This document shows positions 4,156 to 48,472 of a stretch of 64,000 nucleotides of DNA, one piece after another; positions within the stretch are counted from its first letter, which is position 1; every line of letters begins with the position of its first letter. A program made the position numbers and the translations under genes. The notes beneath the pieces were generated by a model. It was not told the origin of the DNA and ran no database searches. It saw only the letters and a program-made list of their open reading frames with translations. The DNA is taken from contig JBAZKN010000001.1 in NCBI GenBank assembly GCA_041650755.1, positions 70,796 through 134,795 on the forward strand. The letters are read 5' to 3'. This DNA comes from Patescibacteria group bacterium. Lineage in GTDB: Bacteria > Patescibacteriota > Patescibacteriia > UBA1558 > GWA2-36-10.

Positions 4156-5034
4156 ATGAAGAAGAACGGTTGGTTCAAGGCATGCTTCCCTCTGATCGTG
4201 ATGCTTCTGCTCGCAAGCATCGTCCTGCTCATGCTGGGGTGCAGTCACGAGACGCAGCAGACCACGGCGCAGACCCAGATCGCTCGAGTCGACTCGATCA
4301 TCAAGGCTGCGAAAGATGAGCGGCCCCCGGCCAAGTTCAGAATCTTGGACAGGTCCGAGGCCGAGAAGAAGTTCGATCCGCGGCTGATCAAGGCGTTCAA
4401 CCGTCTAGCCACACAGGAGTTTGCTGCTTGGGAGTTGATCGAGGGTCTGCCGTTCTCTATGACCAGTGGTACGTACATTGTCGGTCAGGATAGCCTGCGT
4501 ACAATGTACTACTGGCTGGTCGATACGGTGATGGACTACAATGCCCAAGTGGGCACCTTTCAAGGCCTTGCCTTCTTGACGCCTGAAGAGTGGCATTCGG
4601 CCTATGAGCTAATGTGGGAGCTTCGGCTTCCGCGGCCGAGTTCTAGGTGCTTCACTCCCACCAGCTACGTGCAGGTGGGTGCACACAACGAGTTGGAGCA
4701 CTTTGGCAATGTTCTGTTCTTCACTGGTGAGCGATTGTACCAGGAGTTGTTCAACATCAACAACGCCTTGATTAACGCCAAGACACATGCCGACTCGTTG
4801 TCGGCGGCTCCGGATTCGCTCAAGCCGGAGCTGGTACAGAGGTACGATCTGATCAAGGATGGAACGACGGTCTATAAGGTGTTGGAGAATCATCCCGACA
4901 AGAAGTGTATCCTGGTGCACCGAGTCAGCGACAAGGAGACAAGGCTCATCTACTATGAAGACTTCCGCCGCGGGGCCAGACTTCTCGCCAAGGGTTCGCC
5001 TGACTGGGTGGAGGCGGTCTGTCGCATCTTCTGA
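4156..5034 (+). CDS. Hypothetical lipoprotein encoded on GC-rich island A
   Basis: RBS agagagagtgtgag; signal peptide plus lipobox MLGC|S; coding GC about 55% versus about 37% background; no recognisable domain. Confidence 0.65.
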   Translation: MKKNGWFKACFPLIVMLLLASIVLLMLGCSHETQQTTAQTQIARVDSIIKAAKDERPPAKFRILDRSEAEKKFDPRLIKAFNRLATQEFAAWELIEGLPFSMTSGTYIVGQDSLRTMYYWLVDTVMDYNAQVGTFQGLAFLTPEEWHSAYELMWELRLPRPSSRCFTPTSYVQVGAHNELEHFGNVLFFTGERLYQELFNINNALINAKTHADSLSAAPDSLKPELVQRYDLIKDGTTVYKVLENHPDKKCILVHRVSDKETRLIYYEDFRRGARLLAKGSPDWVEAVCRIF

Positions 5035-5094: not shown

Positions 5095-5120
5095 TCATTT
5101 TGCGAAAAAAGGAATTAAAG

Positions 5121-5154
5121 CGGCTCGTCCCGAGCGTAGTCGAGGGACGAGCCG
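5121..5154. terminator. Bidirectional GC-rich hairpin between convergent genes
   Basis: cggctcgtccc gagcgtagtcga gggacgagccg, an 11-bp perfect stem. Confidence 0.6.
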
Positions 5155-5169
5155 CTCAAAGCTTGTAAC

Positions 5170-7280: not shown

Positions 7281-7354
7281 TCGGGGATCGTCTAATGGTA
7301 GGACAGCGGCCTTTGGAGCCGTGAATCTAGGTTCGACTCCTAGTCCCCGAGCCA
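7281..7354 (+). tRNA. tRNA-Gln (anticodon TTG)
   Basis: Acceptor tcgggga/tccccga with U1-A72; U8; T-arm ctagg ttcgact cctag; anticodon loop ctTTGga; discriminator G plus encoded CCA. Confidence 0.85.
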
Positions 7355-7450
7355 AGCGAACGAAGTGAGCTTGGTTCGAAACTTCAAAGGATGCTCCGCA
7401 ATAGGCGGAGCAACCTAAGATGCTGCGCAATAGCGCAGCGCCCCGAGCCA
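7355..7450 (+). repeat. Reiterated tRNA-Gln 3'-end-derived unit with hairpins, copies R1 and R2
   Basis: atgctccgcaataggcggagc at 7391-7411 and atgctgcgcaatagcgcagcgCCCCGAGCCA at 7420-7450, which ends with the same 10 nt as the tRNA 3' end tccccgagcca. Confidence 0.7.
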
Positions 7451-7530
7451 TGCACCACCCATTCTCTCGCTATCACTCAATAATTTCGGGTGCATGGCAA
7501 AGCCACTGGGGTGAAAGGATACGTAGTGCA

Positions 7531-7613
7531 TGCAATGAACCCTAGCGTAGCGCATGGTTCATTGCAACAAAAACAAAATGATATGCTGCGCAATAGCGCA
7601 GCGTCCCGAGCCA
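7531..7613 (+). repeat. Third copy of the tRNA-3'-end repeat (R3) preceded by a perfect 11-bp hairpin
   Basis: tgcaatgaacc/ggttcattgca hairpin at 7531-7566; atgctgcgcaatagcgcagcgTCCCGAGCCA at 7583-7613, 30/31 identical to R2. Confidence 0.7.
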
Positions 7614-7695
7614 ATCAGTATGAGCATATAATCAAAAAAACAGAGTTGAAATCCCTGTTTTTATTTTTTATTGATAATTATAAAAATAAAAAAAG

Positions 7696-7736
7696 AGAGG
7701 TCTGTGGATGCGTGCGGCGCATCCAGAGCAGACCTC
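7696..7736 (-). terminator. Strong nested-hairpin rho-independent terminator for the minus-strand island B gene
   Basis: agaggtctg [tggatgcg tgcg gcgcatcca] gag cagacctct, followed on the minus strand by a T-rich run. Confidence 0.7.
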
Positions 7737-7765
7737 TCGAGTTCACAGCCACCCCTCAATCACTA

Positions 7766-7792
7766 GATGAGGGTGCAGAGGAGGAGTGGCTA
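7766..7792 (+). repeat. Left copy of a direct repeat bounding GC island B
   Basis: ATGAGGGTGCAG 12/12 identical and about 21/27 over the extended match to 9945-9971. Confidence 0.55.
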
Positions 7793-8143
7793 CGGCAGGT
7801 CTCCCAGCCAGCCGTCATCGCCGTATTCGGTCTCGATGTAGATCGAGACCAGACAGAGCCAATTGAACGCCGTCCGCGCCCAGTTGAACTCCTTGGCGGT
7901 CTCGCAGTAGATGCTGTCGAACACATCGGCCTGGGCGTTCGTCGGACCGATGATCGACATCATGCTCTCGATCGCGGTGATGACAGCGGTGGCCGGCGGC
8001 GAAGCGACAGCGGGCATCATCGTCGTCAGGACGATCTCGTTCGGCTGCGGCGGCATGGTCGCGTTGTGCTGCGGCAAAGGCACGGCCATCAAGACCGTGA
8101 TCGCCAGCGTGCACAAGCCGATCAAAACGACATTCCTCTTCAT
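7790..8143 (-). CDS. Small secreted protein (signal peptide) on GC island B, hypothetical
   Basis: RBS cgaggagaggaac before ATG at 8143 (MKRNVVLIGLCTLAITVLMAVPLPQ...); about 60% GC; track ORF trimmed to this start; the long plus-strand ORF 7490..8206 is an antisense artefact. Confidence 0.6.
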   Translation of the reverse strand: MKRNVVLIGLCTLAITVLMAVPLPQHNATMPPQPNEIVLTTMMPAVASPPATAVITAIESMMSIIGPTNAQADVFDSIYCETAKEFNWARTAFNWLCLVSIYIETEYGDDGWLGDLP

Positions 8144-8231
8144 GTTCCTCTCCTCGCGTTGGTGGGGAAGCTGGACGCAAATCAAAGAACCTGGGTTACC
8201 GGCTGATAGATTCCTCCTTTCCCGAGGGACG

Positions 8232-8921
8232 TTAGCGAAACAGAGCTGTTTGCCTGGGCGCTACGATGCCTGGGTCCAGCGCGATGCTGGCGACTTGAGC
8301 GCCGAGGTATCGGCGCTCTACTAGCACCCAGACGATCTTTTTGGTTCCGTCCGGCTCTTGCGTATTGAACGCATTGTTGCTGAACTCCACCACTTGCCTG
8401 CGGCTATCGCACAAAGGCTCTCTTCCTCTTTGTTCTTGGAAGCACAGAACGCCACTGTCGCTGACAGGGATGGTCGAAGAGTCAGCGGTCGAGATGTACA
8501 GGGTGATTGTGCCTCGGCGGAAGAGAATCTTGTAGTCGTCTGGCATGGTGATGGCCAGGCGATACACTACCAGGTTGGGGTTGGTGACCAACTTGGACAG
8601 GAGATAGTCGGAGCGGGGATGCGGGGTGATAGGCTTACCATCCGGGTCAACGCCAGTCATCAATTGCTTGATACCGGCCATAGATGCTGGGACACCGCGA
8701 TCCCTGAACAACTGGTCAAGCTCTTGTATGCGCCTGTCGTACCATTGCTTGGGATCGCCCCAGCCGCTGTTCATGGTAGAGAAGATCACGTCTGGAGTCA
8801 GGCTAGGTAGCGGAGTGTAGGTGATGTCCGTCGGCCTGCCAGCGATTGCCGCTGTGTCTAGCAGTCCAAGGCCGCAAAAGACAATCAGCGACAGGATGAG
8901 GAAAGCGACTCTTCTCAACAT
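8232..8921 (-). CDS. Secreted hypothetical protein (230 aa) on GC island B
   Basis: AGGAG RBS 7 nt before ATG at 8921; signal peptide MLRRVAFLILSLIVFCGLGLLDTAAIAG; about 60% GC. Confidence 0.65.
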   Translation of the reverse strand: MLRRVAFLILSLIVFCGLGLLDTAAIAGRPTDITYTPLPSLTPDVIFSTMNSGWGDPKQWYDRRIQELDQLFRDRGVPASMAGIKQLMTGVDPDGKPITPHPRSDYLLSKLVTNPNLVVYRLAITMPDDYKILFRRGTITLYISTADSSTIPVSDSGVLCFQEQRGREPLCDSRRQVVEFSNNAFNTQEPDGTKKIVWVLVERRYLGAQVASIALDPGIVAPRQTALFR

Positions 8922-9127
8922 GTTGGTACTCCTTCTGCCCCTTTGGGGCAATGAGGGGTTGCTTTTCAAAGAACCGATTGGCTGGCTTTTGGCCGCCATT
9001 ATGTCAACTCTCGTTAACTCTTTATATAAATACTTACGTGGTTTTTTGTCAAGACTTGACCTTTTGCATAGACAAAAACCCCACTAAGTGAGGCCTTTTA
9101 TCATTATTTGGGTTATTTTCTTGGGAT

Positions 9128-9207
9128 AAGTGCCGGTTACGCCACTAGCTCTTGATTACCTATTTGGCGTCCAAAATATGGATGGTAATCAGTCATTGCC
9201 TCACTTT
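9128..9207 (+). repeat. Structured repeat copy A: conserved 5' box, variable 7-bp stem, conserved loop
   Basis: gccggttacgcCactagctcTt / GATTACC ...ggcgtcca.aata... GGTAATC / agtcattgcctca. Confidence 0.7.
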
Positions 9208-9385
9208 TAGTATATTTTATATATACACCTTTTTCAAATATTTTGCAATACATGTATCTGAAGATAAGGAGGGGCCTGCCATGAACAGATAGAGAACTAG
9301 CTGTAGGCAGGCCCGGATGCTAAGTGTCAGATTTGGCACTTAGCCATGAGGATCAGTTTGGTAAGTGGTTGGAGGTTGGGGGGGG

Positions 9386-9793
9386 TCAGCAGGAGACGGC
9401 GAAGAAAGTCTCGATGTACTCGACAAAGCGCATGACGTTGAAAGGTTTGGACCAGAAAGGCACGCGATAGAGTTCTTGCAGGTGGCGGACTTGATCGGTG
9501 TGGTGGTGTCCAGTCAGGATGACCGAACACTTCTGAGACATCTCCATGTCATAAACCAGACCACAGAGCCAGCCGCCATCCACTTCGCTGGTTTCGGCGA
9601 TGATCACATCGGGGAATGGCCTGGTGCTGGCCAAAAGCCCGATGACGTCGACTGGGTGGAGCACCATCTTGGGGCTAGTGCTGCCCTTGGGCAGCACTAT
9701 GTTGGTCAGTACTTCGTGACCATTGCCTTCAAGAGCCTGGCACAGAGCGGTGATGGTGCTGTGGTCTTTGTCAAAAATGAAGATGCGCGACAT
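9386..9793 (-). CDS. Stand-alone atypical receiver (REC)-like protein with Glu replacing the phospho-acceptor Asp
   Basis: GGAGG RBS; IFIFDKDH (acid pocket), PDVIIAETSEVDGG (Asp to Glu), SVILTGHH (conserved Thr), WSKPF (conserved Lys); GC-rich. Confidence 0.55.
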   Translation of the reverse strand: MSRIFIFDKDHSTITALCQALEGNGHEVLTNIVLPKGSTSPKMVLHPVDVIGLLASTRPFPDVIIAETSEVDGGWLCGLVYDMEMSQKCSVILTGHHHTDQVRHLQELYRVPFWSKPFNVMRFVEYIETFFAVSC

Positions 9794-9944
9794 GGTCGTT
9801 GACCTCCTAGTCCCTTTATGGACTTCCTTGTGGTGATTGATTTACCATTCCCATTTGCTGAAAATGGCCAACAAGGCTTGCCAGACATCGTTGAACTTAT
9901 TCACGATTTTCTACCTCTGGTTGATGAGTAACAAAAAGACACCC

Positions 9945-9971
9945 AATGAGGGTGCAGGAAGGAGAGTAGCC
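9945..9971 (+). repeat. Right copy of the direct repeat bounding GC island B
   Basis: ccaATGAGGGTGCAGgaaggagagtagcca. Confidence 0.55.
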
Positions 9972-9980
9972 AAAAGCCAT

Positions 9981-10053
9981 TATGCCGGTTACGCTACTAG
10001 CTCCTAATCGTTCAAGCGTCCATATACAAACGATTATTCACAGCCTCATTTTG
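9981..10053 (+). repeat. Structured repeat copy B
   Basis: tatgccggttacgctactagctcct / AATCGTT caagcgtccatataca AACGATT / attcacagcctcatttt. Confidence 0.7.
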
Positions 10054-10133
10054 ATCCTCGATATATTGAAATGAACTTTAACAAAATACACCTCCCATTT
10101 AAGAGGCGTAACCGTTAAAGTCATTTTGACTAT

Positions 10134-10203
10134 TATGCCGGTTACGCTACTAGCTCCTGACCACCCAAGCGTCCATATACAGGTGGTCATTCATAGCCTC
10201 ATT
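10134..10203 (+). repeat. Structured repeat copy C
   Basis: tatgccggttacgctactagctcc / TGACCACC caagcgtccatataca GGTGGTCA / ttcatagcctcatta. Confidence 0.7.
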
Positions 10204-10269
10204 AGTGTATTATATTGTTAACAATTAGCAATATATCATATTACCCATATTTTGTCAATAGGGGATAAA

Positions 10270-11046
10270 TTATTCGTGAAAAAAGCGATTAGCTAAAAAT
10301 ACTATTACTAAGCCAATAAAAAACCAGATTAATTGTTGTAAATAGTGTTTGCTATTTTGTTGGTGTAAGCGCGGAATAATGTCTGATAAAGAAATATAAA
10401 GAAAAGAGCCGGTAGCCAAGGCAGTCAAGGCCAATTGATGAGATGCGCTTTGGCCATAAAAGAAAGCGCTGATGCCGCCCAGGACAGCCAACATGCCGGA
10501 AATAAAGTTAAAAATCAAGGCCTTGGTACGATTAAAGCCGGCATGTAGAAGTAAACTGAAATCACCGACTTCTTGGGGTATTTCATGTAAGGCAATAGCC
10601 ACCGTGGTGATAAGCCCGATATTGGTGCCCAGCATAAAGCTGGAAGCGATTACCATACCGTCAACAAAATTATGCAGACCATCACCGATCAGGACATTGT
10701 AGCCCATGGGGTGTATATTTTTTTCACTATCATGGTGATGGTGACAGTGGTGCCAATGTAAATATTTTTCCGCTAAAATAAATAATATAATCGAGACCAA
10801 AATCCAGGCCGATACGGTTTGAAAAGCATCGTTTTGGTTTTGGGCCTGGGACATGGACATGAGTTCTGGCAAAAGCTCAAAAAATACATTGGCCAGCAAA
10901 ACGGCTGCTGCCAGAGAAATGGTAGCTTCCATGATTTTTTGCGCCTTGGCTTTCTGGCTAAAAATAAACAAGCCAGCAAAAGACAGCAAGCTGACAAATA
11001 GAGTGGCAATAATGATATTTAGTAGAGTAACCATATTTTCTAACAT
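10270..11046 (-). CDS. zupT: ZIP-family zinc transporter ZupT
   Basis: HHCHHHHD loop; HEIPQEVGDFSLLL signature; multi-TM. Confidence 0.9.
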   Translation of the reverse strand: MLENMVTLLNIIIATLFVSLLSFAGLFIFSQKAKAQKIMEATISLAAAVLLANVFFELLPELMSMSQAQNQNDAFQTVSAWILVSIILFILAEKYLHWHHCHHHHDSEKNIHPMGYNVLIGDGLHNFVDGMVIASSFMLGTNIGLITTVAIALHEIPQEVGDFSLLLHAGFNRTKALIFNFISGMLAVLGGISAFFYGQSASHQLALTALATGSFLYISLSDIIPRLHQQNSKHYLQQLIWFFIGLVIVFLANRFFHE

Positions 11047-11127
11047 TACCCAAGCATTATAACCAATGATTGAAAAAAAGTCTATTTTGTGGTATTTTTA
11101 TAACATCCTAAAATTATAATAGACATT

Positions 11128-12753
11128 ATGAGAATTGCTCCAGAAATTGCTCGACTGTACAAGAAAGTGTCCAGGATTTATGCAGAGCGAGCATATGTTG
11201 CCAGCGATGAAAATAAAAATGTTATCCAAGTAGAGGAGATAGCCAGCCACCTATCTTCTTTATATGAAAGATTGAGAAATAGTATAGATTTTAAAGAGGT
11301 CCATCTTTTGCGGCGCTATGCCATAGAGCGCAACATCAAGCGTCGTTTTGTGATGGAAATGCTCAAGCCTAATATTGCTCGCGGCTTGGTGGAAGATTTG
11401 ATCCGCTCCAAATATCTACCCAACAACGAAATTCTTGATGGCCAGATTGCCACAGTAGAAAACATTATTGCTAAATATAATAGCCTGTTTAGCGTACTTA
11501 ATGTTCAATACGAGTCAGCTAAAATACGGGAAAAAGAGTTGCATGAATATGTTGATTGGTTGATTTCTGTCGAGGCTTGTGAGATTGACATGCTTTTGAA
11601 GCCGGAAGATATAGCCGATGCCGTGATTGAAGCGATGTATCAGGAAACCAAATCGCGCGTCAAAATCAAGGGCGACGATTTGAGTATTCGGGAAAAAAAT
11701 GTTCAGCTCTATATCGCTATTCACAAGTCATTGGTCAAATCAGACGACACCATCATTTCCTATCATTTGCTTAATTTATATTTTGATCAATGGGCCAGCG
11801 CCAGCCAGGAGCTGGTTGACTTGGTGGCGCAAAATTTGCCGGCCATTTATCGGACTATCCAGCATCATCTGCGCCATCCCTATCAGCGCAAAATATACAA
11901 CGCTATTCAGGAGCCGGTAGTCACTTTCCAGGTCTTGCATGAGTTGATTATCAACAAGGGTGAAGAAATGGAAGAATTATTGGTGAACCCCGATTTATTG
12001 GAGTCTGAAGCCCAAGACTTAATCAATAAAAAATATAAAAGCTTACGTTCCAAGCTTAGCCAAAGCTCCATTAGGGCCATTATTTATATTTTCATTACCA
12101 AAGTGTTGATTGCTTTTATTTTGGAGTTTCCTTACGAGGTTTATGTCATCAAGGAAACCAACTATGTCAACTTAGCTATTAATGCCATTTTCCCGCCCAT
12201 GCTGATGTTTTTGGTGACTTTGAGCGCTCAAGTGCCGGGCAAGAAGAACACGGAAAAAATCCTCAGCAATTTATACGATACAGTGTATGATAAAGCTGAG
12301 CCGACCATTCTATGCCAGCTCAAGACTAAATTTCGCAAGAGCTTGTCTTTTCAGATTTTCTATAATTTCATGTACACCCTATTGTATATCCTAGTATTCG
12401 GCGGCGTCATTTATCTGTTAGAAAAGCTAAACTTCAATTTATTAAGCGGTGCTATCTTCTTGTTCTTCCTGACAGCTGTCAGCTTTTTTGCCGTACGCAT
12501 TCGCAATACAGCCAAAGAATTCAGGGTGACTGACAACAAAGAAGGCGTGCTGGCATTTTTGATAAACTTTTTTGCTTTGCCGATAGTCGGAGTGGGCCGC
12601 TGGATGGCCACCAAATTTAAGAAAATAAATTTGTTTGCTTTTATTTTTGATTATATTATTGAAGCGCCATTCAAGTCTTTTGTGGCTATTCTGGAGGACT
12701 GGATAGGGTTTATGAGAGAAAAGAAAGAAGAAGTCTATCATGACGACAAATAA
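11128..12753 (+). CDS. Hypothetical protein with C-terminal transmembrane region
   Basis: 541-aa ORF; soluble N-terminal part plus 4-5 predicted TM helices at the C-terminus; TATAAT 9 nt upstream suggests a leaderless or short leader. Confidence 0.55.
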   Translation: MRIAPEIARLYKKVSRIYAERAYVASDENKNVIQVEEIASHLSSLYERLRNSIDFKEVHLLRRYAIERNIKRRFVMEMLKPNIARGLVEDLIRSKYLPNNEILDGQIATVENIIAKYNSLFSVLNVQYESAKIREKELHEYVDWLISVEACEIDMLLKPEDIADAVIEAMYQETKSRVKIKGDDLSIREKNVQLYIAIHKSLVKSDDTIISYHLLNLYFDQWASASQELVDLVAQNLPAIYRTIQHHLRHPYQRKIYNAIQEPVVTFQVLHELIINKGEEMEELLVNPDLLESEAQDLINKKYKSLRSKLSQSSIRAIIYIFITKVLIAFILEFPYEVYVIKETNYVNLAINAIFPPMLMFLVTLSAQVPGKKNTEKILSNLYDTVYDKAEPTILCQLKTKFRKSLSFQIFYNFMYTLLYILVFGGVIYLLEKLNFNLLSGAIFLFFLTAVSFFAVRIRNTAKEFRVTDNKEGVLAFLINFFALPIVGVGRWMATKFKKINLFAFIFDYIIEAPFKSFVAILEDWIGFMREKKEEVYHDDK

Positions 12754-13204
12754 ACCTTTTTATTTGATCGCTCACAATATTCGCAGTTTATACAACATAG
12801 GTACGTTTTTTCGAACGGCCGATGCTTTGGGCATAGACAAGATTTTTTTGACCGGCTACTCTGGCACACCGCCGCAGTCCGGCATTGCCAAAGTTGCCTT
12901 GGGAGCAGAAAATACCGTGCCTTGGGAACAATACAAAAATATCAGTGTCCTGATCGATAAGTTAAGGGGGCGTTGCATACAGATTGTGGCTCTGGAGCTG
13001 AATAAAAAATCTATTGATATTTTTAAATTTCGGCCAAAGTTTCCTTTAGCGCTTTTGGTCGGCAATGAAGTCCGTGGCATTTCCTCGAGTTTATTAAAAC
13101 AGGCCGACAAAATAATAGCCTTACCCATGCGCGGCAAAAAAGAATCTTTAAATGTCGGCGTGGCTATGGCTGTAGCTGGATATTGTATTCGTTATAAAAA
13201 ATAA
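12740..13204 (+). CDS. SpoU/TrmH-family (SPOUT) RNA 2'-O-methyltransferase
   Basis: NIGTFFRTADALGID and LLVGNEVRGIS...LPMRGKKESLNVGVAMAVAG motifs; 14-nt overlap with the upstream gene. Confidence 0.8.
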   Translation: MTTNKPFYLIAHNIRSLYNIGTFFRTADALGIDKIFLTGYSGTPPQSGIAKVALGAENTVPWEQYKNISVLIDKLRGRCIQIVALELNKKSIDIFKFRPKFPLALLVGNEVRGISSSLLKQADKIIALPMRGKKESLNVGVAMAVAGYCIRYKK

Positions 13205-13293
13205 TTAGGCGAATGATTGAGTTTTTGCTATAATTAACTGCATGAAATGCCGCATATTATGCGAAAACTATTTCATGGGGTAAACAAAAACAA

Positions 13294-14286
13294 ATGTTAA
13301 ACAATAAAATCACCACTATTGGCGGATCAGTCTATGACATTATGTTTTATACCGATAATATTTTGCTATTGGATAACCGCCAGGATCTTTTGCGGCAGAA
13401 GCTGATTGCCTTTGAATACGGCGCCAAAATTTATGGCAAAAAGGTATATTTTGCCTTTGGCGGCGGCGGCGCCAACACAGCCATGACTTTTGCTAGCTTA
13501 GGCATCAAGACACAAATTATCACGGCCATAGGTGAGGATATGCTGGGCCGTAGTATCATGGAGCATCTAAAAAAGCACCGCATAGCCACCAAACTAGTTC
13601 AGATAAAGCCTCAAGAGCTGACGGGCATTTCTTTTGTTATCAATGTTGGTCAGGGCAGCGAACATGTCATTTTTGCCGTGCGAGGGGCCAATGATGCTAT
13701 TGACTTGACTCCGCATATTGTCAAAAAGATAAATACTCCCTGGCTATATTTGACTGCCTTGGGAATAAATTTTAAAACAAAATTAGATCATATTTTTGAA
13801 CAGGCCAGGCGTAAGAAAATAAAAGTAGCTTGGAATCCAGCTAGCCAGCAAATCGCCTTGGGTTTGGCTAGACTAAAACCTTATTTGGAAAAAACTTATG
13901 TTTTGTTGCTAAACCGCGATGAGGCGCTGGAGCTTTTGAGTAGGGGAGGTAAAAAGAAAATCAACAATAATATTAATTGGTTATTAAAAAATTTACACAA
14001 AAGCGGCCAGAAGATTACTGTCATTACTGATGGCGCTAAGGGGGCCCATGTCTATGATGGTCAGCAGGTATATTTTCGGCCGGCTACTAGGAAAAAGACC
14101 GTCAATACCACTGGTGCCGGCGATGCTTTTGGTTCTGGTTTTGTGGCTGGTCTGATAAAATATGGTAGCCGACATATCAGTAAAGCTTTGCATTTGGGTA
14201 TTATAAATAGCGGTTCGGTTGTCACCAAAATAGGCGCCCAGGCCGGCATTTTGCATAGTAAAGACTTAAGTAAGTATAAATTGTAA
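13294..14286 (+). CDS. PfkB-family carbohydrate/nucleoside kinase
   Basis: GGGGANTA and TTGAGDAFGSGFVAGL motifs. Confidence 0.8.
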   Translation: MLNNKITTIGGSVYDIMFYTDNILLLDNRQDLLRQKLIAFEYGAKIYGKKVYFAFGGGGANTAMTFASLGIKTQIITAIGEDMLGRSIMEHLKKHRIATKLVQIKPQELTGISFVINVGQGSEHVIFAVRGANDAIDLTPHIVKKINTPWLYLTALGINFKTKLDHIFEQARRKKIKVAWNPASQQIALGLARLKPYLEKTYVLLLNRDEALELLSRGGKKKINNNINWLLKNLHKSGQKITVITDGAKGAHVYDGQQVYFRPATRKKTVNTTGAGDAFGSGFVAGLIKYGSRHISKALHLGIINSGSVVTKIGAQAGILHSKDLSKYKL

Positions 14287-14287
14287 T

Positions 14288-14848
14288 ATGACAAAAACAG
14301 TCATCGCTGAAATTTCAGCTAAGCATATTCATCTTAGCCAAGAAGATTTAGCTAAACTTTTTGGTAAAAATTATAAGTTAAAAAAATTTAGAGCCTTGTC
14401 AGAACCCACGCAATTTGCGGCTAAAGAAAAAGTTTTTATTTTGGGTGCCAAAAAACATTTAAGTTTACGCATCGTTGGCCCAGCCAGAAAAAAATCCCAA
14501 GTCGAATTAGCCATGACGGATTGTATTTTCTTGGGTATCAAGCCAGCCATTCAGCTATCAGAACACGTCGCTAAAGCAACTTTGGTTATTGTCCAGGGGC
14601 CAAAGGGCAGAGTGAAGGTCCCGGCCATTGTGCCTTGGCGGCATTTGCACATCAGCTTGGCTCAAGCCAAGCTTTGGCGGCTAAGAGCCGGCCAGAGGAT
14701 TTCAGCAATTATTCCTGGCCAGCGGGCAATAGAATTCAAAAATATTATTGTTCGGCCTGGGCCATTTGTCACCCGTCTTCATCTGGACACTGATGAAGGC
14801 AATGCAGCTGGTATAAAATCAGGCACTAAAGTAAAATTATCCATTTGA
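14288..14848 (+). CDS. pduL: PduL-type phosphate acyltransferase (phosphotransacetylase/propanoyltransferase)
   Basis: SAKHIHLSQEDLAKLFG, LSEPTQFAAKEKV, WRHLHIS, RLHLDTDEGNAAG match the PduL signature. Confidence 0.8.
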   Translation: MTKTVIAEISAKHIHLSQEDLAKLFGKNYKLKKFRALSEPTQFAAKEKVFILGAKKHLSLRIVGPARKKSQVELAMTDCIFLGIKPAIQLSEHVAKATLVIVQGPKGRVKVPAIVPWRHLHISLAQAKLWRLRAGQRISAIIPGQRAIEFKNIIVRPGPFVTRLHLDTDEGNAAGIKSGTKVKLSI

Positions 14849-14849
14849 T

Positions 14850-16010
14850 ATGCACACCAAGCATCTTTTAGTTTTGAATCCAGGGTCAAGCAGCTTGCGG
14901 CTGACGGTTTTTGAAATTAAAGACAAAAATGTTGGCAGCCTGGTTTTTAATGGCATGGTCAGCGGGCAGAACGGTAAAACAGTCCTAATGTATCAGGCGC
15001 GCGGCCAAAAACAAAAAATAAATTATTCAGTTGGGCACAATTTGAAAGCCTGGTGGCAGTATATTCACGATTTGCTCAAAGATTTTGATATAGATATGGT
15101 TGGCGTCAGGGTGGTGCATGGCGGGGAACTGTATACCAGTACTTGTCGAATTGATAAGCAGTTTTTGGCTAATATTAGCCAATTTAATGTTTTAGCACCA
15201 TTGCATAATCCAGCCGCTATAGAATTAATCAAGCTAGTTCAGGCCACTTGGCCAAGAAGTAAGCTAGCCGCTAGTTTTGATACAGCTTGGTACAAAGATT
15301 TAGCGCCGGAAGTTTATCTTTATTCTTTACCTTTAAAATATTACGAAAAAAATAAAATTCGCAAATATGGTTTTCACGGGCTTAGCCATGAAGCGGCTAC
15401 TAATTTTGCTGCCAAAAAATTACGTCTGCCCTTAAATCAATTGCAAGCCATTAGCTGCCATTTGGGTGCCGGTGCCAGCCTTAGCTGGTATATCAAGGGC
15501 AAAGTCAAAGATACAACTATGGGCTTTTCGCCCAACGAAGGCCTGACTATGGCTACTAGATCGGGTGATCTGCCGTCAAGCATTGTCTTGTATTTGGCTC
15601 AAGAGCTCAAGATGTCTTTGCCGGCAATCCATAAAATGTTCAATGAACAATCCGGTCTTTTGGGCATATCCGGACTATCTGATTTGCGAGAAATACTGTT
15701 GGCTGCCGGCTATCGAGTCCAAGGGTATAAATCCAGCTTGAAATTTAGCGCTGAACAAAAAAAGAAGGCTAAACTAGCCCTAGCTATTTATATTTATGAC
15801 ATCAAGCGCTACTTGGCTTCATATATAGCCATGACGCAAAAATTGCAAGCCATAGTTTTCACCGGCACAGTAGGCGTCAATAGTCCGGTTATTAGAAAAC
15901 TTGTTTTAAAAGATTTACAAATTCCTAAAAATTGCAAAATCTTCGTTGCTCCGGAAGGAGAAATGACGATGCTTGCCCAAAAAACACTACAATGTTTGCT
16001 CAAAAAATAA
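14850..16010 (+). CDS. ackA: Acetate/propionate kinase
   Basis: LVLNPGSSSLRL; GFHGLSHEAA; VHLGAGAS-like HLGAGASLS. Confidence 0.9.
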   Translation: MHTKHLLVLNPGSSSLRLTVFEIKDKNVGSLVFNGMVSGQNGKTVLMYQARGQKQKINYSVGHNLKAWWQYIHDLLKDFDIDMVGVRVVHGGELYTSTCRIDKQFLANISQFNVLAPLHNPAAIELIKLVQATWPRSKLAASFDTAWYKDLAPEVYLYSLPLKYYEKNKIRKYGFHGLSHEAATNFAAKKLRLPLNQLQAISCHLGAGASLSWYIKGKVKDTTMGFSPNEGLTMATRSGDLPSSIVLYLAQELKMSLPAIHKMFNEQSGLLGISGLSDLREILLAAGYRVQGYKSSLKFSAEQKKKAKLALAIYIYDIKRYLASYIAMTQKLQAIVFTGTVGVNSPVIRKLVLKDLQIPKNCKIFVAPEGEMTMLAQKTLQCLLKK

Positions 16011-16522
16011 TAGAATTAGCCCAAGCGGCTACTTCTACCAACATCAATCAAAATTTACAAAATACCGAAGAGCAATTGCAAAACCTAAATGCTAATCTAG
16101 ATTTGCTCAAAGAAGAATATAATGCGGTGGCCAGCCAACCCACCAATTATTCATTTTTTGATTTGAGCAATATTTATTTTTGGTTTGTGCTAGCCGGCTT
16201 ATTGTTATTGGCTTTCGGACTTTTATTTCTATTGGCTGAATTGCAAAATAAAGAACGAAAGAATAGGGTCAAGCCCGAATTGCCAAAATTAGAACCCCTG
16301 ACCTACATCCAAAGCTCAGCTGAAGATAAGGCAGGAGAAAAAGTAGAAGCTATAAAATTTGCTCCCCAGCAAGAGATACCGGAAAAAAAGATTGAACCCA
16401 AAATTGCCTTCAAGCCGGTTGAAAAAACCGAAGCTAAAATTAAAGCAAAAAAACCAGTCCTAGCTCCAGCCAAAGAGTCCAAAAAGGGGCCGATTAAAAT
16501 AAAAGTGGAGAAGGTAAAATAA
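15992..16522 (+). CDS. Hypothetical membrane-anchored coiled-coil protein with Lys/Pro-rich tail
   Basis: Start moved to MFAQKII; still overlaps the ackA end by 19 nt; one TM (FWFVLAGLLLLAFGLLFLLA). Confidence 0.45.
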   Translation: MFAQKIIELAQAATSTNINQNLQNTEEQLQNLNANLDLLKEEYNAVASQPTNYSFFDLSNIYFWFVLAGLLLLAFGLLFLLAELQNKERKNRVKPELPKLEPLTYIQSSAEDKAGEKVEAIKFAPQQEIPEKKIEPKIAFKPVEKTEAKIKAKKPVLAPAKESKKGPIKIKVEKVK

Positions 16523-16533
16523 TTTTAATTATT

Positions 16534-16836
16534 ATGGGCACATTATCAACAAAAGTAAAGGTAGGTAGGTTTTTTCTTGGGGTAGTTATTAGTGTTATCT
16601 ATATTGGTATCACAAATTTATCTTATCGTTTTTTTAGTGGAGCATCTAGTAATTATATTTCAGTGTTGCAGATTATTATTTATTTAGCGGGAATCGTTTT
16701 TTGTGCTGTAAAAACTAAGACCGATTCACGCTACAAGTACGTTTGTTGGGGACTATTCATACCGCAAACTATTTTGTTAATTTCATTAACTTTATGGGCC
16801 CTCCTTGGTATTTATATAGCCACTAATATAAAGTGA
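16534..16836 (+). CDS. Small hypothetical membrane protein
   Basis: 100 aa with three hydrophobic helices. Confidence 0.4.
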   Translation: MGTLSTKVKVGRFFLGVVISVIYIGITNLSYRFFSGASSNYISVLQIIIYLAGIVFCAVKTKTDSRYKYVCWGLFIPQTILLISLTLWALLGIYIATNIK

Positions 16837-16936
16837 TGGAGCCTGCTTTGGTATGACGAAGATATAATTTCCCAAATTTATTAATTATTGCTACAATAAT
16901 CACGTTACACAGGCGTGATTATTTATTGATGAAAAT

Positions 16937-18643
16937 ATGTCCTATATTTGGCAAATAAAAGATAAAGCACCCAAAGAATTTTTAGATAAATTTCCTGAGC
17001 TGCCACCTATTGTGGTTCAACTTTTGTATAACCGTGAATTAAAAACTCAAGAGGCAATTGATGAATTTTTGTTGCCCGATTATAGTCAGGACGTGCACGA
17101 TCCTTTTTTATTTAAAGACATGCAGCGGGCCTGCCGGCGAATCTATGAAGCCATAACCAAGCAAGAATTAATTACCGTTTACGCTGACTACGATGCTGAT
17201 GGAGTATCGGCAGCCGTAATTTTGAAAAGTATCTTGACTGACCTGGGAGCCAAAATAAATGTTTATTTACCGCATCGTGAAAAAGAAGGCTATGGCCTAA
17301 ATTTGCCGGCTATAGAGGAAATAGCTAAAAATGGCACGCAGCTTATCATTACTTGTGATTGCGCCATCAGCAATGTAGAAGAAGTAGCCCTAGCTAATAG
17401 CCAGGGGCTTGATGTCATTATTACCGATCATCATGCCATTCCCTTGGTCCTGCCTCAAGCCTATGCTATTATTCATCCCCAATTAGCCGGCGAAACTTAT
17501 CCTTTCAAGTTTTTGGCTGGCGGTGGCGTGGCTTTTAAGCTGGCCCAAGCTTTATTGAAGCATGCGGACAATAAGTTTACCGTGAAAGATAGTGAAGTTA
17601 AAGAAAAATGGCTCTTGGATATGGTAGCCATTTCCACAGTAGCTGACATGGTGCCGCTTTTGGGAGAAAATCGTACTTTAGTAAAACATGGACTCATAGT
17701 CTTGCGGAAGACGCGGCGCGTAGGCCTGCAGTTGATGATCAAAGTGGCTGGCATCGACACGAGGGCTTTGGATGCCAATAGCATTGCTTTTTCCATAGCG
17801 CCGCGCATCAATACTGCCGGGCGCATGGATCATGCCAATCTGGCCTATTATTTGCTGACAACCACTGATCCAGAAAAAGCGACTGAAATGGCCTCAAGCC
17901 TTAATCAAAATAATATTGATCGGCAAAGAGTGACTGAACAAATTATCCGCGAGGCCAAAATGCAGGAGATTAATTTGGAAGAAAAATTATTAGTCTTCTA
18001 CAAAGCTGACTGGCCAGCTGGTTTAATAAGTTTGGCCGCTAATAGATTGTTGCGAGAATACAATCGGCCTTGTTTGGTGGTTTGCGGTCAGGGGGATAAA
18101 ATAGTTGCCTCGGCCCGCAGTTTTCCTGAATTTGATATTAATTGGGCCTTGGAAGAAAATAAAAATTTACTGGAGCGTTTTGGCGGTCATCCGCAAGCGG
18201 CTGGTTTTACTGTGCGGCAGGCAAATTATGATCAGTTATTAAAAAATCTGAAAAACCTAGCCGAGGAAAAACTGAAAAATGTTGCTTTGCAAAACAAGCT
18301 TTTGGTGGAAAAAAATATTGCCTTGAGCCAGATAAATTGGGAATTACTAGATTGGTTGAAAAAATTTGAGCCCTATGGTCAGGCTAATCCTGAACCAATT
18401 TTTTCTAGTGAAAATGTTCTGGTCAGCCAGGCACGTAAGGTTGGCAGCGATGGGCAGCATTGGAAATTAGAGCTTACCCAAGGAGAAAAAAGAATTGGCG
18501 GCATTGCTTTTGGCCAAGCGGATTTTGATTTGGCCATTGGCCACCGGGTGGATCTGGCGTATAATATCAATGTCAATGAATGGAATGGCAACCGAGAAGT
18601 TCAATTAAAAATTAAAGATTTGCGTCAGCATGATTCAAGGTAA
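16937..18643 (+). CDS. recJ: Single-stranded-DNA-specific exonuclease RecJ
   Basis: DHH motifs (YADYDADGVSAAVIL, ITDHH) and DHHA1 (GGHPQAAG). Confidence 0.9.
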   Translation: MSYIWQIKDKAPKEFLDKFPELPPIVVQLLYNRELKTQEAIDEFLLPDYSQDVHDPFLFKDMQRACRRIYEAITKQELITVYADYDADGVSAAVILKSILTDLGAKINVYLPHREKEGYGLNLPAIEEIAKNGTQLIITCDCAISNVEEVALANSQGLDVIITDHHAIPLVLPQAYAIIHPQLAGETYPFKFLAGGGVAFKLAQALLKHADNKFTVKDSEVKEKWLLDMVAISTVADMVPLLGENRTLVKHGLIVLRKTRRVGLQLMIKVAGIDTRALDANSIAFSIAPRINTAGRMDHANLAYYLLTTTDPEKATEMASSLNQNNIDRQRVTEQIIREAKMQEINLEEKLLVFYKADWPAGLISLAANRLLREYNRPCLVVCGQGDKIVASARSFPEFDINWALEENKNLLERFGGHPQAAGFTVRQANYDQLLKNLKNLAEEKLKNVALQNKLLVEKNIALSQINWELLDWLKKFEPYGQANPEPIFSSENVLVSQARKVGSDGQHWKLELTQGEKRIGGIAFGQADFDLAIGHRVDLAYNINVNEWNGNREVQLKIKDLRQHDSR

Positions 18644-19031
18644 ACTATTTACAGACGGGGGAGCGCGGGGCAATCCTGGGCCAGCGGCCATCGGGGCGGT
18701 TTTGCATATTGACGGCCAAAGCGTAGTTGAATCGTCTCATTATTTGGGCGAGGCTACCAATAATCAGGCAGAGTATGAGGCCATAATCGCTGGTTTGAAA
18801 TTGGCCCACAAAAATCAGGTAGATGTTCTGGAGTGTTATTTGGATAGCGAGCTGGTGGTCAAACAAATGCGTCAGGAATACAAGGTCAAAGATAAGGATC
18901 TACAAAAGCTATTTGTCAAAGCTTGGAATGAGACGCTGAATTTTAAAAAAATTACCTGGCACCATATTCCGCGAGAAAAAAACAAAGCAGCCGATAGATT
19001 GGTCAATCTAGCTTTAGATAAAGAAAAATAA
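18630..19031 (+). CDS. rnhA: Ribonuclease HI
   Basis: TDGGARGNPGPAAIGAV; TNNQAEYEA; DSELVVKQM. Confidence 0.9.
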   Translation: MIQGKLFTDGGARGNPGPAAIGAVLHIDGQSVVESSHYLGEATNNQAEYEAIIAGLKLAHKNQVDVLECYLDSELVVKQMRQEYKVKDKDLQKLFVKAWNETLNFKKITWHHIPREKNKAADRLVNLALDKEK

Positions 19032-19032
19032 T

Positions 19033-19362
19033 ATGAAAGAAAAAAGATTCAATCCTTTTGAGGAATCGTCAGAACAAATCCCGACTCCAGAAGAAATATT
19101 GGAGATACTTGAGCGTGTGATAAATAGAGAATTTATAGAAGTTGGTAGATATGAGGATGAAAGGGGTATTTACCGATTAGATGTTCAAACGCCCGGTGAT
19201 GAAGAGGGAGAAATGGTGGAATATATTTATACAAGAATGGGGCGCTACCCACAAAGCCAAAGTACAAACACCGAGATTAGTATAGCTTACTATAAAGATG
19301 GCATTCCTTTTTTCGGCACAATAGTGGCCAGATATATTGGTGGTAGCTGGAAGATTCTTTAA
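19033..19362 (+). CDS. Hypothetical small acidic protein
   Basis: 109-aa ORF immediately following rnhA. Confidence 0.45.
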   Translation: MKEKRFNPFEESSEQIPTPEEILEILERVINREFIEVGRYEDERGIYRLDVQTPGDEEGEMVEYIYTRMGRYPQSQSTNTEISIAYYKDGIPFFGTIVARYIGGSWKIL

Positions 19363-19424
19363 TTTTAAATTTTTAAAATAGGTAATAATATAAAAACTAC
19401 TCTGCGGAGAGTTTTTTTCTTCCC

Positions 19425-20468
19425 TTGATTTTATGCAGTAAAAATGTTATTTTAAAGACAATGCCAGTCAAATTTTTTTGGCCAATTTATGGGCACCAAG
19501 CCCAAATAAAATTTCTCCAATCGGCTATCGCCAATCAGCGCGTGGCCAATGCTTATTTGTTTTATGGGCCAAAAGGTTTGGGTAAAAAATTAACTGCCCA
19601 ATATTTTGGCGCCAGCTTATTTTGTACTAATTTGCAGGAAAAGCCCTGTGGTCGCTGTGAGCATTGTTTGCTGATCAAAAGAAAGGTTTTTCTAGACATC
19701 TTTACTTTGGGCGAGCAAGATACCGAGTTGTCAGCCGAGAATATCAGGGAATTTTTACATAGCTTGTCCATGTCGCGGGTGCATAATACTCATAAATTAG
19801 CCATTATCTATGGAGTAGAAAATATGAATTTATTTGGCGCCAATGCCATGCTTAAGATCTTGGAAGAGCCGCCCAGCCACACAACCATTCTTTTGGTGGC
19901 TGATAATATCAATCAATTGCCGGCCACTATTATTTCTCGTTGCCAGCTGATAAAATTTCAGGCTCTGGCGCGATCTGACATGGAGGCTTGGCTGAAAAAT
20001 TATGAAGAAGTCAACGAAGCAACGCGCGAAACCATTATCAATTTATCTTTTGGTCGGCCTGGCACGGCTTTGACAATGCTGGCTGATGATCTGACAACTT
20101 TTAAGAAGAATTGTAGTTTTATCATCAAGCTTTTGGCCGGCAATCAATTCAATGCTTTGCAGACCATTGAGAAGTGGTTTGAGATTTTAAAAAAAGAGAA
20201 TCCTGATGCCAAGGTTTCGGAGCTGGGCAATATGACTAAGCAATATTTGGATCTATTGGCAGTTTGCTTGCGTGATCTTTTGTGGATCAAGCTAGAGCGG
20301 CCGGTGGTCAATAGTCTTTATCAATCTGACATGCAAAAGCTAGCCGGGCAGTTCTCGGCTGACGGTTTGTTGAAAAACCTTTTGGCTATAGATGATTATA
20401 AACAAAAGATAAAATATAATGTCACGCCACAGCTAGCGTGGGAAAATTTATTTTTAAGTTTAAAATAA
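19425..20468 (+). CDS. holB: DNA polymerase III delta-prime subunit
   Basis: AYLFYGPKGLGK; ILEEPP; ISRCQ; the true start may be at 19461 (MPVKFF). Confidence 0.8.
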   Translation: MILCSKNVILKTMPVKFFWPIYGHQAQIKFLQSAIANQRVANAYLFYGPKGLGKKLTAQYFGASLFCTNLQEKPCGRCEHCLLIKRKVFLDIFTLGEQDTELSAENIREFLHSLSMSRVHNTHKLAIIYGVENMNLFGANAMLKILEEPPSHTTILLVADNINQLPATIISRCQLIKFQALARSDMEAWLKNYEEVNEATRETIINLSFGRPGTALTMLADDLTTFKKNCSFIIKLLAGNQFNALQTIEKWFEILKKENPDAKVSELGNMTKQYLDLLAVCLRDLLWIKLERPVVNSLYQSDMQKLAGQFSADGLLKNLLAIDDYKQKIKYNVTPQLAWENLFLSLK

Positions 20469-30627: not shown

Positions 30628-31063
30628 GGCTTAAGCTGACCCTGTAAGCCGAATTCTGTCTAGGATGATCATCTATCTAGGCCTAACATTGCTGTTAAGC
30701 TCAAGCGGTTTACCCGCCATACACCATATGGTGCATGACCTACTTAACCTTTCACCAAGTAGAGTTTGCCTCTTTTAGCTTGTCACCAAGCTAACGTGTC
30801 TAGTCATTACCAGACAATTTCACCCTTATCCACCTAGGCCGAAGCTTTGGCGGAAGGAATATTTTCTGTTGTACTTGTCCTGATCAATGGGTCACCCCTT
30901 TGATCGGTTGGCGTTACCAACTACTCTTTTATCGGTGTTCGGACTTTCCTCCCCGAACCACTCGCTTTGCTCGGGTATCAGGGCAGAACTCCTGAAATTC
31001 CCTTACGTGGTTAGCCATTTACCAGAGCAAGGCGAGTGGTTCGCGGCGATCATCTGGGCCAAT
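30628..31063 (-). ncRNA. rnpB: RNase P RNA (bacterial type A)
   Basis: Minus-strand sequence contains GGAAAGTCCGAACACC (P4), AGGGTGAAATTGTCTGGTAATGAC (P10/11 region), ACAGAATTCGGCTTACAGG (3' P4 strand), and P1 pairing of ggcttaa with ttaagcc. Confidence 0.8.
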
Positions 31064-47626: not shown

Positions 47627-47700
47627 TGCCGGATCGTCTAATGGTAGGACGTCAGGTTCTGGCCCTGATAATCTAGGTTCGATTCCTAGTCCGGCAGCCA
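47627..47700 (+). tRNA. tRNA-Gln (anticodon CTG)
   Basis: Acceptor tgccgga/tccggca with U1-A72; anticodon loop ttCTGgc; T-arm ctagg ttcgatt cctag; encoded CCA. Confidence 0.85.
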
Positions 47701-47712
47701 AATTTTAATAAA

Positions 47713-48408: not shown

Positions 48409-48441
48409 CCTAATTTAGATTCTCGAAGCGAAGCGTAGACC

Positions 48442-48472
48442 ATGCTGAATAGCGGGGCTAGCCCCCGAGCCA
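48442..48472 (+). repeat. tRNA-Gln(TTG) 3'-end mimic repeat (R4) at the edge of GC island C
   Basis: atgctgaatagcggggCTAGCCCCCGAGCCA versus the tRNA 3' end CTAGTCCCCGAGCCA (14/15); homologous to R2/R3 at 7420-7613. Confidence 0.65.

Follow-up and report, generated by a model that had tools for sequence, protein, structure and literature searches.

The 64,000-nt window analysed here (contig JBAZKN010000001.1 of a Patescibacteria group bacterium, positions 70,796 to 134,795; all coordinates below are window positions) contains a tRNA-Gln(TTG) gene followed by repeated copies of its own 3′ end and, beyond these, by a group of GC-rich minus-strand genes. We consider it probable that these are two independent features: a resident regulon gated by cyclic di-GMP-II (c-di-GMP-II) riboswitches and, directly behind the tRNA, two relics of a tRNA-Gln-specific GIY-YIG element that have lost their open reading frame (ORF). 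The evidence comprises the anatomy of the locus, its homology across genomes, the empty, full and relic states of the element, its tandem copies, the co-variation of the copies with the tRNA, and the structure that they retain. An original prediction had taken the GC-rich DNA for an islet integrated at the tRNA. Its observations are mostly right and its island interpretation is wrong; its suggestion of an uncatalogued tRNA-targeting element is right for a smaller and different piece of DNA.

The GIY-YIG element at tRNA-Gln and its probable relics

The tRNA-Gln(TTG) gene (7281-7354, plus strand) encodes its CCA, and ARAGORN and Rfam (tRNA model, 62 bits) agree on it, with the predicted end at 7354. 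Its last 10 nt, CCCCGAGCCA (7345-7354, copy 1), recur on the same strand as CCCCGAGCCA at 7441-7450 (copy 2) and, with one C lost, as TCCCGAGCCA at 7604-7613 (copy 3). The core CCCGAGCCA occurs four times in the 64 kb (starts 7346, 7442, 7605 and 48464) versus 0.23 expected, a number reached in 0 of 100 shuffles; downstream of the tRNA it lies at 7442-7450, 7605-7613 and 48464-48472. Copies 2 and 3 each stand just behind a GCTGCGC-AATA-GCGCAGC hairpin (7423-7440 and 7586-7603), the two hairpin and tRNA-end units forming a 40-nt direct repeat with 88% identity, and a perfect 11-bp hairpin has its arms at 7531-7541 and 7556-7566. The recurrences and hairpins had all been predicted and were found where expected; Rfam returns no credible family over 7355-7690. 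Copy 3 is followed by an A-rich spacer and a terminator, and a comparison of trailers shows the same arrangement behind tRNA-Gln genes at empty sites. The hairpin at 7636-7662, recovered by the terminator scan and by folding and flanked by T-runs on both sides, probably terminates the tRNA-Gln transcript and backs up termination of the convergent operon described below.

Full elements of ~430 nt are present behind tRNA-Gln in two relatives, L020 and L024 (L numbers denote loci and contigs other than the window). In L020, tRNA-Gln is followed by a 145-nt leader, an 86-aa GIY-YIG ORF, TAA-G, ATGCTGGGCAATAGCGCAGCG, CTCCGAGCCA and a terminator; L024 has a homologous leader behind its tRNA-Gln, then an 88-aa GIY-YIG ORF with a stop codon that overlaps a GAGCCA copy, and finally a terminator. 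Both ORFs match PF01541 (E = 6e-19), and the catalytic domain alone covers the 86-88-aa proteins (residues 4-74 of 86). The leader, ~145 nt long, is structured, its first stem beginning with the CA of the tRNA CCA. A 27-nt arm with a 7-bp hairpin follows the nuclease gene in L020 and is lacking in L024, and the tRNA-end copy is 10 nt long in L020 and just 6 nt in L024, with the native trailer and terminator behind it. L020 has CTCCGAGCCA in its tRNA end and again in the copy, where other genomes have CCCCGAGCCA; the copy therefore follows its own tRNA. Between L020 and L024 the nucleases are 79% identical, compared with 51-71% for six housekeeping orthologues, and the non-coding leader has 73% nucleotide identity, compared with 67% for ZIP and AckA coding DNA.

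A metagenome scan with the motif ATGCTG..AATAGCG..CCCGAGCCA gave eight matches, of which four (L004, L005, L007 and L008) are true and four (L006, L009, L010 and L011) are chance occurrences inside coding sequence. L004, L005 and L008 have a tRNA-Gln (CTG or TTG) followed 60-180 nt on by CCTAAGATGCTGNGCAATAGCGCAGCGCCCCGAGCCA and then by the native trailer, with no GC-rich island downstream; L007 is a short contig that starts within the element. Further loci were gathered through homologues of the neighbouring ZIP transporter, which proved a useful anchor for synteny. The element is full in L020 and L024, ORF-less in the window, L004, L005, L007, L008, L021 and L025, and absent from L019, L023 and L026, where the terminator directly follows the tRNA. 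Behind its distal tRNA-end copy there is always an A-rich spacer followed by a terminator, which is also the arrangement at those empty sites. Tandem copies are present in the window and in L005.

Relic 1 (7355-7440, plus strand) is an ORF-less copy of 86 nt, identified from a motif table and from an alignment (A1) with full L020 and L024 and ORF-less L004, L005, L008 and L021. Its parts are the leader loop motif CGAACGAAGTGAG (7357-7369), hairpin A (7393-7411), a CCTAAG stop-codon remnant (7414-7419) and hairpin B (7423-7440), with the 3′ arm reading GCTTGGTTCG; near-identical counterparts are found in L025 and L007. In the alignment the ORF-less copies have retained one of two parts of the leader, its start (L005, L008) or its distal loop motif CGAACGAAGTGAG (window, L004, L021), together with the stop-codon context and the arm. 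Copy 2 borders relic 1 on the right and marks where relic 2 was inserted. Relic 2 (7451-7603, plus strand, 153 nt) consists of a whole 5′ leader (7451-7585) and hairpin B′ and is documented by a second alignment (A2), by folds and by a table of hairpin arms. Stem P-I of relic 2 (7447-7456/7489-7498) starts with the GCCA of copy 2, and stem P-II is the 11-bp hairpin (7531-7541/7556-7566). Aligned with the L020 and L024 leaders, relic 2 shows a mean column identity of 72% and its ATG matches the GIY-YIG start codon; since the leader is joined at this former start ATG (7583-7585) straight to hairpin B′ (7586-7603), the ORF has been deleted exactly. Compensatory changes between genomes are present in P-I, P-II and hairpins A and B.

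Together with a third alignment (A3), A1 and A2 show that leader, arm and core are common to these copies. The alignments and the trailer context thus identify 7355-7613 as two gutted copies, in tandem, of a GIY-YIG element specific to tRNA-Gln. The original prediction of an uncatalogued tRNA-targeting element with serial insertion stands to this extent, but the element is not the island and has no tyrosine or serine recombinase. Going by these sequences, the nuclease may promote insertion or homing into tRNA-Gln genes, and the tRNA end would be duplicated on insertion so that the tRNA stays intact. The second relic sits in the duplicated core left by the first. Internal deletions would have produced both relics, and the ends of one such deletion would fall exactly at the start ATG and at the ATG that belongs to the hairpin arm.

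Matches to parts of the element occur elsewhere in the window. A solo 12-bp hairpin at 5120-5155 (plus strand) has an inner 22 nt, GTCCCGAGCGTAGTCGAGGGAC (5127-5148), that recurs unchanged as P-II in the element of L008 (L008 4365-4386), the ZIP proteins of the two genomes being only ~55% identical. A degenerate hairpin arm and tRNA-end core (ATGCTG-AATAGCG-...-CCCCCGAGCCA) lies at 48440-48472 on the plus strand, 740 nt downstream of a tRNA-Gln(CTG) gene (region 47627-48472), and adjoins another small GC-rich gene; an AT-rich methyltransferase gene (47713-48408; GC 0.30; third-position GC content, GC3, 0.22; PF05175/PF06325) lies between it and the tRNA. This tRNA-Gln(CTG) ends in CCGGCAGCCA, and those of L004 and L005 end in CCCCGAGCCA. 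Scans of viral contigs gave nothing for the hairpin arm or the GIY-YIG protein, and with the tRNA-Gln 3′ end they gave only phage tRNA arrays without the motif. Two other readings of the arm were rejected: as a peptide (MLRNSAAPRA...), it shows no synonymous variation, and the one codon that varies gives different residues (R/C/G); as a tRNA-like structure or minihelix, hairpin and tail receive no ARAGORN call and have no 5′ partner conserved in position.

The predicted riboswitch-gated genes

GC content is 0.55-0.63 over 7700-9000 and 9300-9800, versus 0.41 for the 64-kb window overall. The predicted jump from ~7690 to 9975 is there as a rise in GC, but it comes as two blocks with an AT-rich spacer of 300 nt (9000-9300) between them, in which a promoter and a riboswitch are found; promoters and aptamers have the composition of the backbone and only the coding sequences are GC-rich. 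Backbone genes lie nearly all on the plus strand, have a GC3 of ~0.40 and almost never have Shine-Dalgarno (SD) sites. The three minus-strand island genes have a GC3 of 0.68-0.74 and AGGAG-type ribosome-binding sites, and so differ from their surroundings in both respects, as anticipated. The same pattern holds across the window and in L008, L020, L023 and L024: an SD-like site within 20 nt is all but absent from backbone starts and nearly always present in riboswitch-gated or GC-rich genes.

Three c-di-GMP-II aptamers lie on the minus strand. Aptamer 1 (10210-10127) and aptamer 2 (10057-9974) match Rfam RF01786 with 65.5 and 64.1 bits (gathering threshold 53.5), and aptamer 3 (9212-9122) has positional orthologues in L008, L020 and L025 that score 49-65 bits. 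The first control region (9939-10258, minus strand) contains a promoter-like site (10258..10230; 11/12 matches, TG-extended), the first two aptamers and terminators at 10110..10087 and 9955..9939; the second (9071-9237, minus strand) contains a promoter-like site (9237..9209), aptamer 3 and a terminator hairpin with U-run (9097-9071). In the terminator scan each of the three aptamers is followed by a terminator-like hairpin with a U-run, with minus-strand genes downstream, and the same is true of every aptamer in L008, L020, L023 and L024. In each unit, the 5′ arm of the terminator is the complement of the 5′ strand of the aptamer that precedes it, and the two vary together (AAUGAGG/CCUCAUU in aptamer unit 2, GUGAGGC/GCCUCAC in unit 3).

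With these promoters and aptamer-terminator units, the locus at 7700-10260 resolves into two transcription units. The order in one is promoter, aptamer, terminator, aptamer, terminator and a 135-aa gene; in the other it is promoter, aptamer, terminator, a 229-aa gene, a 117-aa gene and a long terminator (7738-7682). This last is a long GC-rich hairpin with a minus-strand T-run (7682-7738), read from the sequence because it is too long for the terminator scan. The AT-rich sigma-70-type promoter would drive the tandem aptamers ahead of the receiver-like 135-aa gene. From the complementarity of terminator arm and aptamer, we infer that their pairing acts as an anti-terminator when ligand is absent, so that the genes are transcribed; with c-di-GMP bound, the aptamer would be locked, the terminator would form and transcription would stop. 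The switch would then be an OFF switch, which the tandem arrangement may sharpen.

None of the three proteins (135, 229 and 117 aa) has a Pfam family at E ≤ 0.1. The receiver-like 135-aa protein (9386-9793, minus strand; GC3 0.71, AGGAGG site) has orthologues in L023 (L023_137, 70% identity), L020 (L020_133, 35%) and L008 (L008_125, 31%), and its family has 10 cluster representatives among 1.84 billion proteins. L020_133 matches PF00072 at E = 0.008, under the cut-off, and two L024 paralogues have precomputed PF00072 matches, one of them weak; by eye, the window protein has Ala at the usual phospho-acceptor Asp position. The 229-aa exported or lipoprotein-like protein (8232-8921, minus strand; GC3 0.68, AAGGAG site) matched only itself in a word-based search of 5.8 billion proteins, and its weak relatives, encoded in the same operon slot, came only from BLASTP against the syntenic loci (L024_226, 226 aa, E = 1e-12; L020_201, 201 aa, E = 2e-4). 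The SD-led, GC-rich gene of the 117-aa protein (7790-8143, minus strand, in the ORF list and in NCBI as WC465_00380) encodes an N-terminal signal-peptide-like segment, and the product has a weak homologue in L020_70 (29% identity, E = 6e-4, BLASTP). Single-sequence structure predictions gave pLDDT values of 39 for the 135-aa protein (AlphaFold; unusable) and 47 for the 229-aa protein.

The same layout is present in other genomes, with ZIP proteins that are 52-60% identical to that of the window in the riboswitch-bearing relatives. L008, L020 and L025 have, as in the window, ZIP, two aptamers, a receiver-like gene, an aptamer and exported-protein genes, and the 135-, 229- and 117-aa proteins match L020_133, L020_201 and L020_70 in the same gene order; L023 and L024 have the tandem aptamer pair beside ZIP with receiver-like and exported-protein genes, a third aptamer being undetected there. 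In all of the island-bearing relatives the riboswitch-gated genes are SD-led and have a GC content above the backbone. The atypical composition of the island relative to its host, at GC 0.55-0.56 versus 0.41, is thus shared by orthologues in other genomes, and it differs within one family: GC3 is 0.68 in the 229-aa gene and 0.30 in L024_226. Third-position identity at conserved residues is 55% for the 135-aa protein and L023_137, and 49% for ZIP and a 541-aa gene of the same genome pair. Synonymous sites of island orthologues are as saturated as those of backbone genes, so that the divergence of the island is old and its composition is no sign of recent import.

The position of these genes relative to the tRNA and its repeats varies. 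They lie on the 5′ side of tRNA-Gln in L008, L024 and L025; in L023 they abut the 3′ side of the tRNA, as in the window, and the tRNA is followed only by a terminator, without a repeat. L021 has the tRNA-end repeat and ZIP directly beside tRNA-Gln, with no riboswitch and no GC-rich genes, and L019 and L026 have neither island nor repeats. As to orientation relative to ZIP, the tRNA-Gln gene, along with its element, is inverted in the window, L023, L019 and L026 with respect to L008, L020, L021, L024 and L025. On one side the syntenic loci share a conserved block, RecJ...AckA-PTAC-PfkB-SpoU-535aa-ZIP, and on the other a block of CTP synthase-L9-CtpB; the ZIP-CTP synthase interval has a different gene content in each genome examined, PMT_2, SurA-like, zf_Tbcl_2, peptidase M10 and a 954-aa Por_Secre_tail protein being among the genes seen there. 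This gap between two conserved blocks is rearrangement-prone, and the island is a resident, fast-evolving, lineage-specific regulon and not a recent insertion at the tRNA.

Alternative explanations and genomic setting

Several observations weigh against a resident regulon beside two GIY-YIG relics. When the L020 and L024 proteins were searched against 7355-7700 by tblastn, neither a GIY-YIG gene nor a remnant of one turned up, so the link to the element runs through non-coding homology with two relatives, and no DNA-binding domain is found in either of those proteins. We know of no GIY-YIG homing endonuclease that creates 10-nt duplications, and the sole, indirect hint that the nuclease may cleave and move is its higher identity between L020 and L024 than that of the housekeeping proteins. 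A 37-nt unit of these repeats has 27 of its 37 columns invariant in 9 copies, more than tRNA-Gln itself (77-97% identity); its 27-nt arm is better conserved than decaying relics would be expected to be and hints at a function for the host or at the RNA level. On the side of the regulon, aptamer 3 itself scores only 43.3 bits (E = 4e-7), under the gathering threshold; the suggested OFF polarity is read from complementarity only; and vertical residence alone does not account for the lasting GC3 of ~0.7 and the SD sites of the island genes.

The conservation of the arm bears on the idea that the hairpins and tRNA-end copies are an ancestral, functional tRNA-Gln trailer—one that might signal processing, stabilise the RNA or mimic the acceptor end—into which the GIY-YIG gene intruded later, so that there would be no relic of a mobile element. 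The 37-nt unit is near-invariant where tRNA-Gln differs at 3-23% of positions, pairing in the hairpins is maintained by compensatory changes, ORF-less copies included, and the 5′ strand of the tRNA can pair with the distal copy in a fold of the whole transcript. Yet the ORF-less copies retain pieces of the nuclease leader and CCTAAG, the joint of relic 2 is exactly at the start codon, the copies are tandem in the window and L005, the sites in L019, L023 and L026 are cleanly empty, L024 has the nuclease gene without a hairpin arm, and the tail has no positionally conserved partner. We regard this explanation as unlikely, and it is the extreme conservation of the 37-nt unit that keeps it from being less likely still. 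The persistent composition of the island genes could in turn mean that the GC-rich coding sequences are recent xenologous replacements, brought by homologous recombination into a resident riboswitch slot from GC-richer, SD-using kin or an unsampled donor, with the aptamers, ZIP and tRNA-Gln as anchors. GC content does jump at the boundaries of coding sequences next to backbone-like promoters and aptamers, the GC3 values of the 229-aa gene and L024_226 are far apart, and gene content between ZIP and CTP synthase varies in every genome examined. However, no donor was found (the 229-aa protein matching only itself and the receiver-like family having its few representatives), synonymous divergence of GC-rich pairs (window and L023, L023 and L024) is as deep as in the backbone, and the GC-rich state is common to several diverged genomes, which makes recent replacement a rather improbable account.

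The islet of the original prediction would have been inserted by a tyrosine or serine recombinase at the 3′ end of tRNA-Gln and then have decayed or been mobilised in trans, the tRNA-end copies being attachment sites and a 12-nt direct repeat its boundaries. Its grounds are real: the island genes are atypical in GC content and in their use of SD sites, the tRNA-end repeats adjoin the island, and a 12-nt direct repeat lies near both of its ends. That repeat, ATGAGGGTGCAG, is exact, at positions one base off those predicted (7767-7778, plus strand, in a hairpin of the 3′ untranslated region of the 117-aa gene, and 9946-9957), but first-order Markov resampling of the region yields an exact direct repeat of 12 nt in 13% of resamples, so it is not above chance and marks no boundary. 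Its right copy forms the 5′ arm of the hairpin that terminates riboswitch 2, so that the promoter and both tandem aptamers fall outside the supposed bracket. The tRNA-end copies lie only between tRNA and island: on the distal, ZIP side (~9800-10300) there is no match to the 20-nt tRNA 3′ end at up to 5 mismatches. As the prediction had noted, the island has no recombinase inside it; none is found at its edge either, the island ORFs having no Pfam domain and the neighbours being ZIP, zf_Tbcl_2 and an aminotransferase by Pfam. Co-occurrence of island and repeats fails in the relatives, with repeats and no island in L004, L005 and L021, the island without repeats in L023, and the island across the tRNA in L008, L024 and L025; with the layout conserved in L008, L020, L023, L024 and L025 and the operon orthologous between genomes at saturated synonymous sites, the findings agree with what the prediction itself had named as grounds for refuting the islet, which is largely refuted and, in our view, highly improbable. 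An assembly chimera, with foreign GC-rich reads joined into a low-GC contig, would explain the sharp change in composition but has a practically negligible chance of being correct. An independent Logan contig (L001, SRR8542065) is 100% identical to the window over 7422-19793 and so covers both GC junctions, four contigs from other samples (L008, L023, L024 and L025) and, more weakly, L020 have the same mixed architecture, and promoters and riboswitches of backbone type are wired to the GC-rich genes.

Within the favoured reading of two independent features, a further step is speculative, and we give it little weight: the catalytic-domain-only GIY-YIG protein, the structured leader whose first stem uses the tRNA CCA, and the 27-nt arm might together form an active tRNA-Gln-specific insertion system in which nucleic-acid structure gives target recognition, with the ORF-less copies as non-autonomous forms that are kept or mobilised in trans. 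The arms, tRNA-Gln and the aptamers might additionally serve as homology anchors for exchanging GC-rich, SD-led cassettes among Patescibacteria.

Other features of the setting are as follows. The Logan contig ends at window position 7422, one base short of hairpin B of relic 1, with no 31-mer repeat there, and the end may reflect population heterogeneity at the relic junction. The closest relatives of the neighbouring aminotransferase and ZIP proteins are in Komeilibacteria-, Buchananbacteria- and Falkowbacteria-type genomes. The aminotransferase was dropped as an anchor: a scan of a genome collection gave distant matches in Acinetobacter and Treponema only, its closest homologues are at most 61% identical, and the single locus retrieved (P0008) is non-syntenic. 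Three further GC-rich genes (4156-5034, plus strand; 48571-48861 and 61981-62532, minus strand; GC 0.51-0.61, GC3 0.58-0.74) lie amid the AT-rich, SD-less backbone without Pfam families, both minus-strand ones being SD-led; it looks as if this genome had a second gene class, set apart by composition and by translation signals. A bacterial RNase P RNA of class A (30629-31003, minus strand, 190 bits) runs counter to almost every gene in the window. Rfam calls a tRNA at 63857-63942 (plus strand, 57 bits, span 86 nt), where ARAGORN calls none with the intron option on or off; by eye it has a D-loop insertion of ~11 nt and the anticodon loop TTATCGG, and another tRNA, truncated by the end of the window, begins at ~63968. 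Weak Rfam matches to Rickettsia sRNA47 (35-37 bits, far under gathering) in L019 (12340-12463), L021 (12717-12930) and L026 (9008-9131) occupy the same syntenic place near L9/CtpB and are probably artefacts of coding sequence.

Significance and comparison with known systems

The locus corrects a textbook inference, in that tRNA-end repeats next to DNA of foreign composition do not here amount to an integrated island, and automated island finders would err likewise in these genomes. Three predicted c-di-GMP-II riboswitches at one locus would gate a conserved receiver-like and exported-protein set in Patescibacteria, which suggests that c-di-GMP controls surface functions in these ultra-small episymbionts. 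A small GIY-YIG family tied to tRNA-Gln, with sites that are empty, full or gutted, is tractable for asking how a domain-minimal nuclease finds its target. Finally, SD-led outliers with a GC3 of ~0.7 persist over deep divergence in SD-less, AT-rich genomes, which is unexpected under simple amelioration. Our literature searches gave nothing on c-di-GMP-II riboswitches in Patescibacteria or the candidate phyla radiation and no description of a tRNA-linked GIY-YIG element, absences that are no proof of novelty.

Islands and prophages that target tRNA genes with tyrosine integrases (attL/attR) resemble the element in having direct repeats of the tRNA 3′ end, a regenerated tRNA and a displaced end followed by the native trailer. 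They differ in that there is no integrase here, 86-430 nt instead of kilobases lie between the repeats, and the GC-rich genes are outside them. Like miniature inverted-repeat transposable elements and repetitive extragenic palindromic repeats, the relics are short, hairpin-rich and ORF-less with a coding parent, and there is a solo hairpin at 5120-5155; unlike them, they lack terminal inverted repeats, are tied to the end of tRNA-Gln and have only 1-2 extra copies in 64 kb.

In the mitochondrial atp6 gene of Allomyces, an endonuclease ORF has been inserted at the 3′ end along with a duplicated gene end. Phage T4 SegB is a free-standing GIY-YIG homing endonuclease whose gene lies within a tRNA gene cluster (PMC2330249). 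The tRNA-Gln element is like free-standing GIY-YIG homing genes in that an ORF stands at a conserved gene, is polymorphic in presence and absence, has decayed ORF-less copies, and leaves the host gene intact with its 3′ end duplicated. Occupied and empty alleles are thus both found, whereas the window has no ORF and the proteins have no DNA-binding domain. It differs from those genes in encoding a catalytic domain of ~86 aa only, in a target that is the last 6-10 nt of a bacterial tRNA-Gln, in its structured and conserved leader and near-invariant 27-nt arm, and in the tandem relics, the copies in the window being ORF-less.

Genes downstream of c-di-GMP-II riboswitches often encode exported or surface proteins, and those in the window likewise encode exported proteins. 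The window also resembles known RF01786 riboswitches, tandem ones included, in having two aptamers above the gathering threshold over the full length of the model and an intrinsic terminator after each. What differs is the Patescibacteria host, the presence of three aptamers in one locus, the receiver-like first gene, regulated genes that are compositional outliers with SD sites, and a polarity that would be OFF. The riboswitches of the window are ordinary RF01786 members in an unusual host and arrangement.

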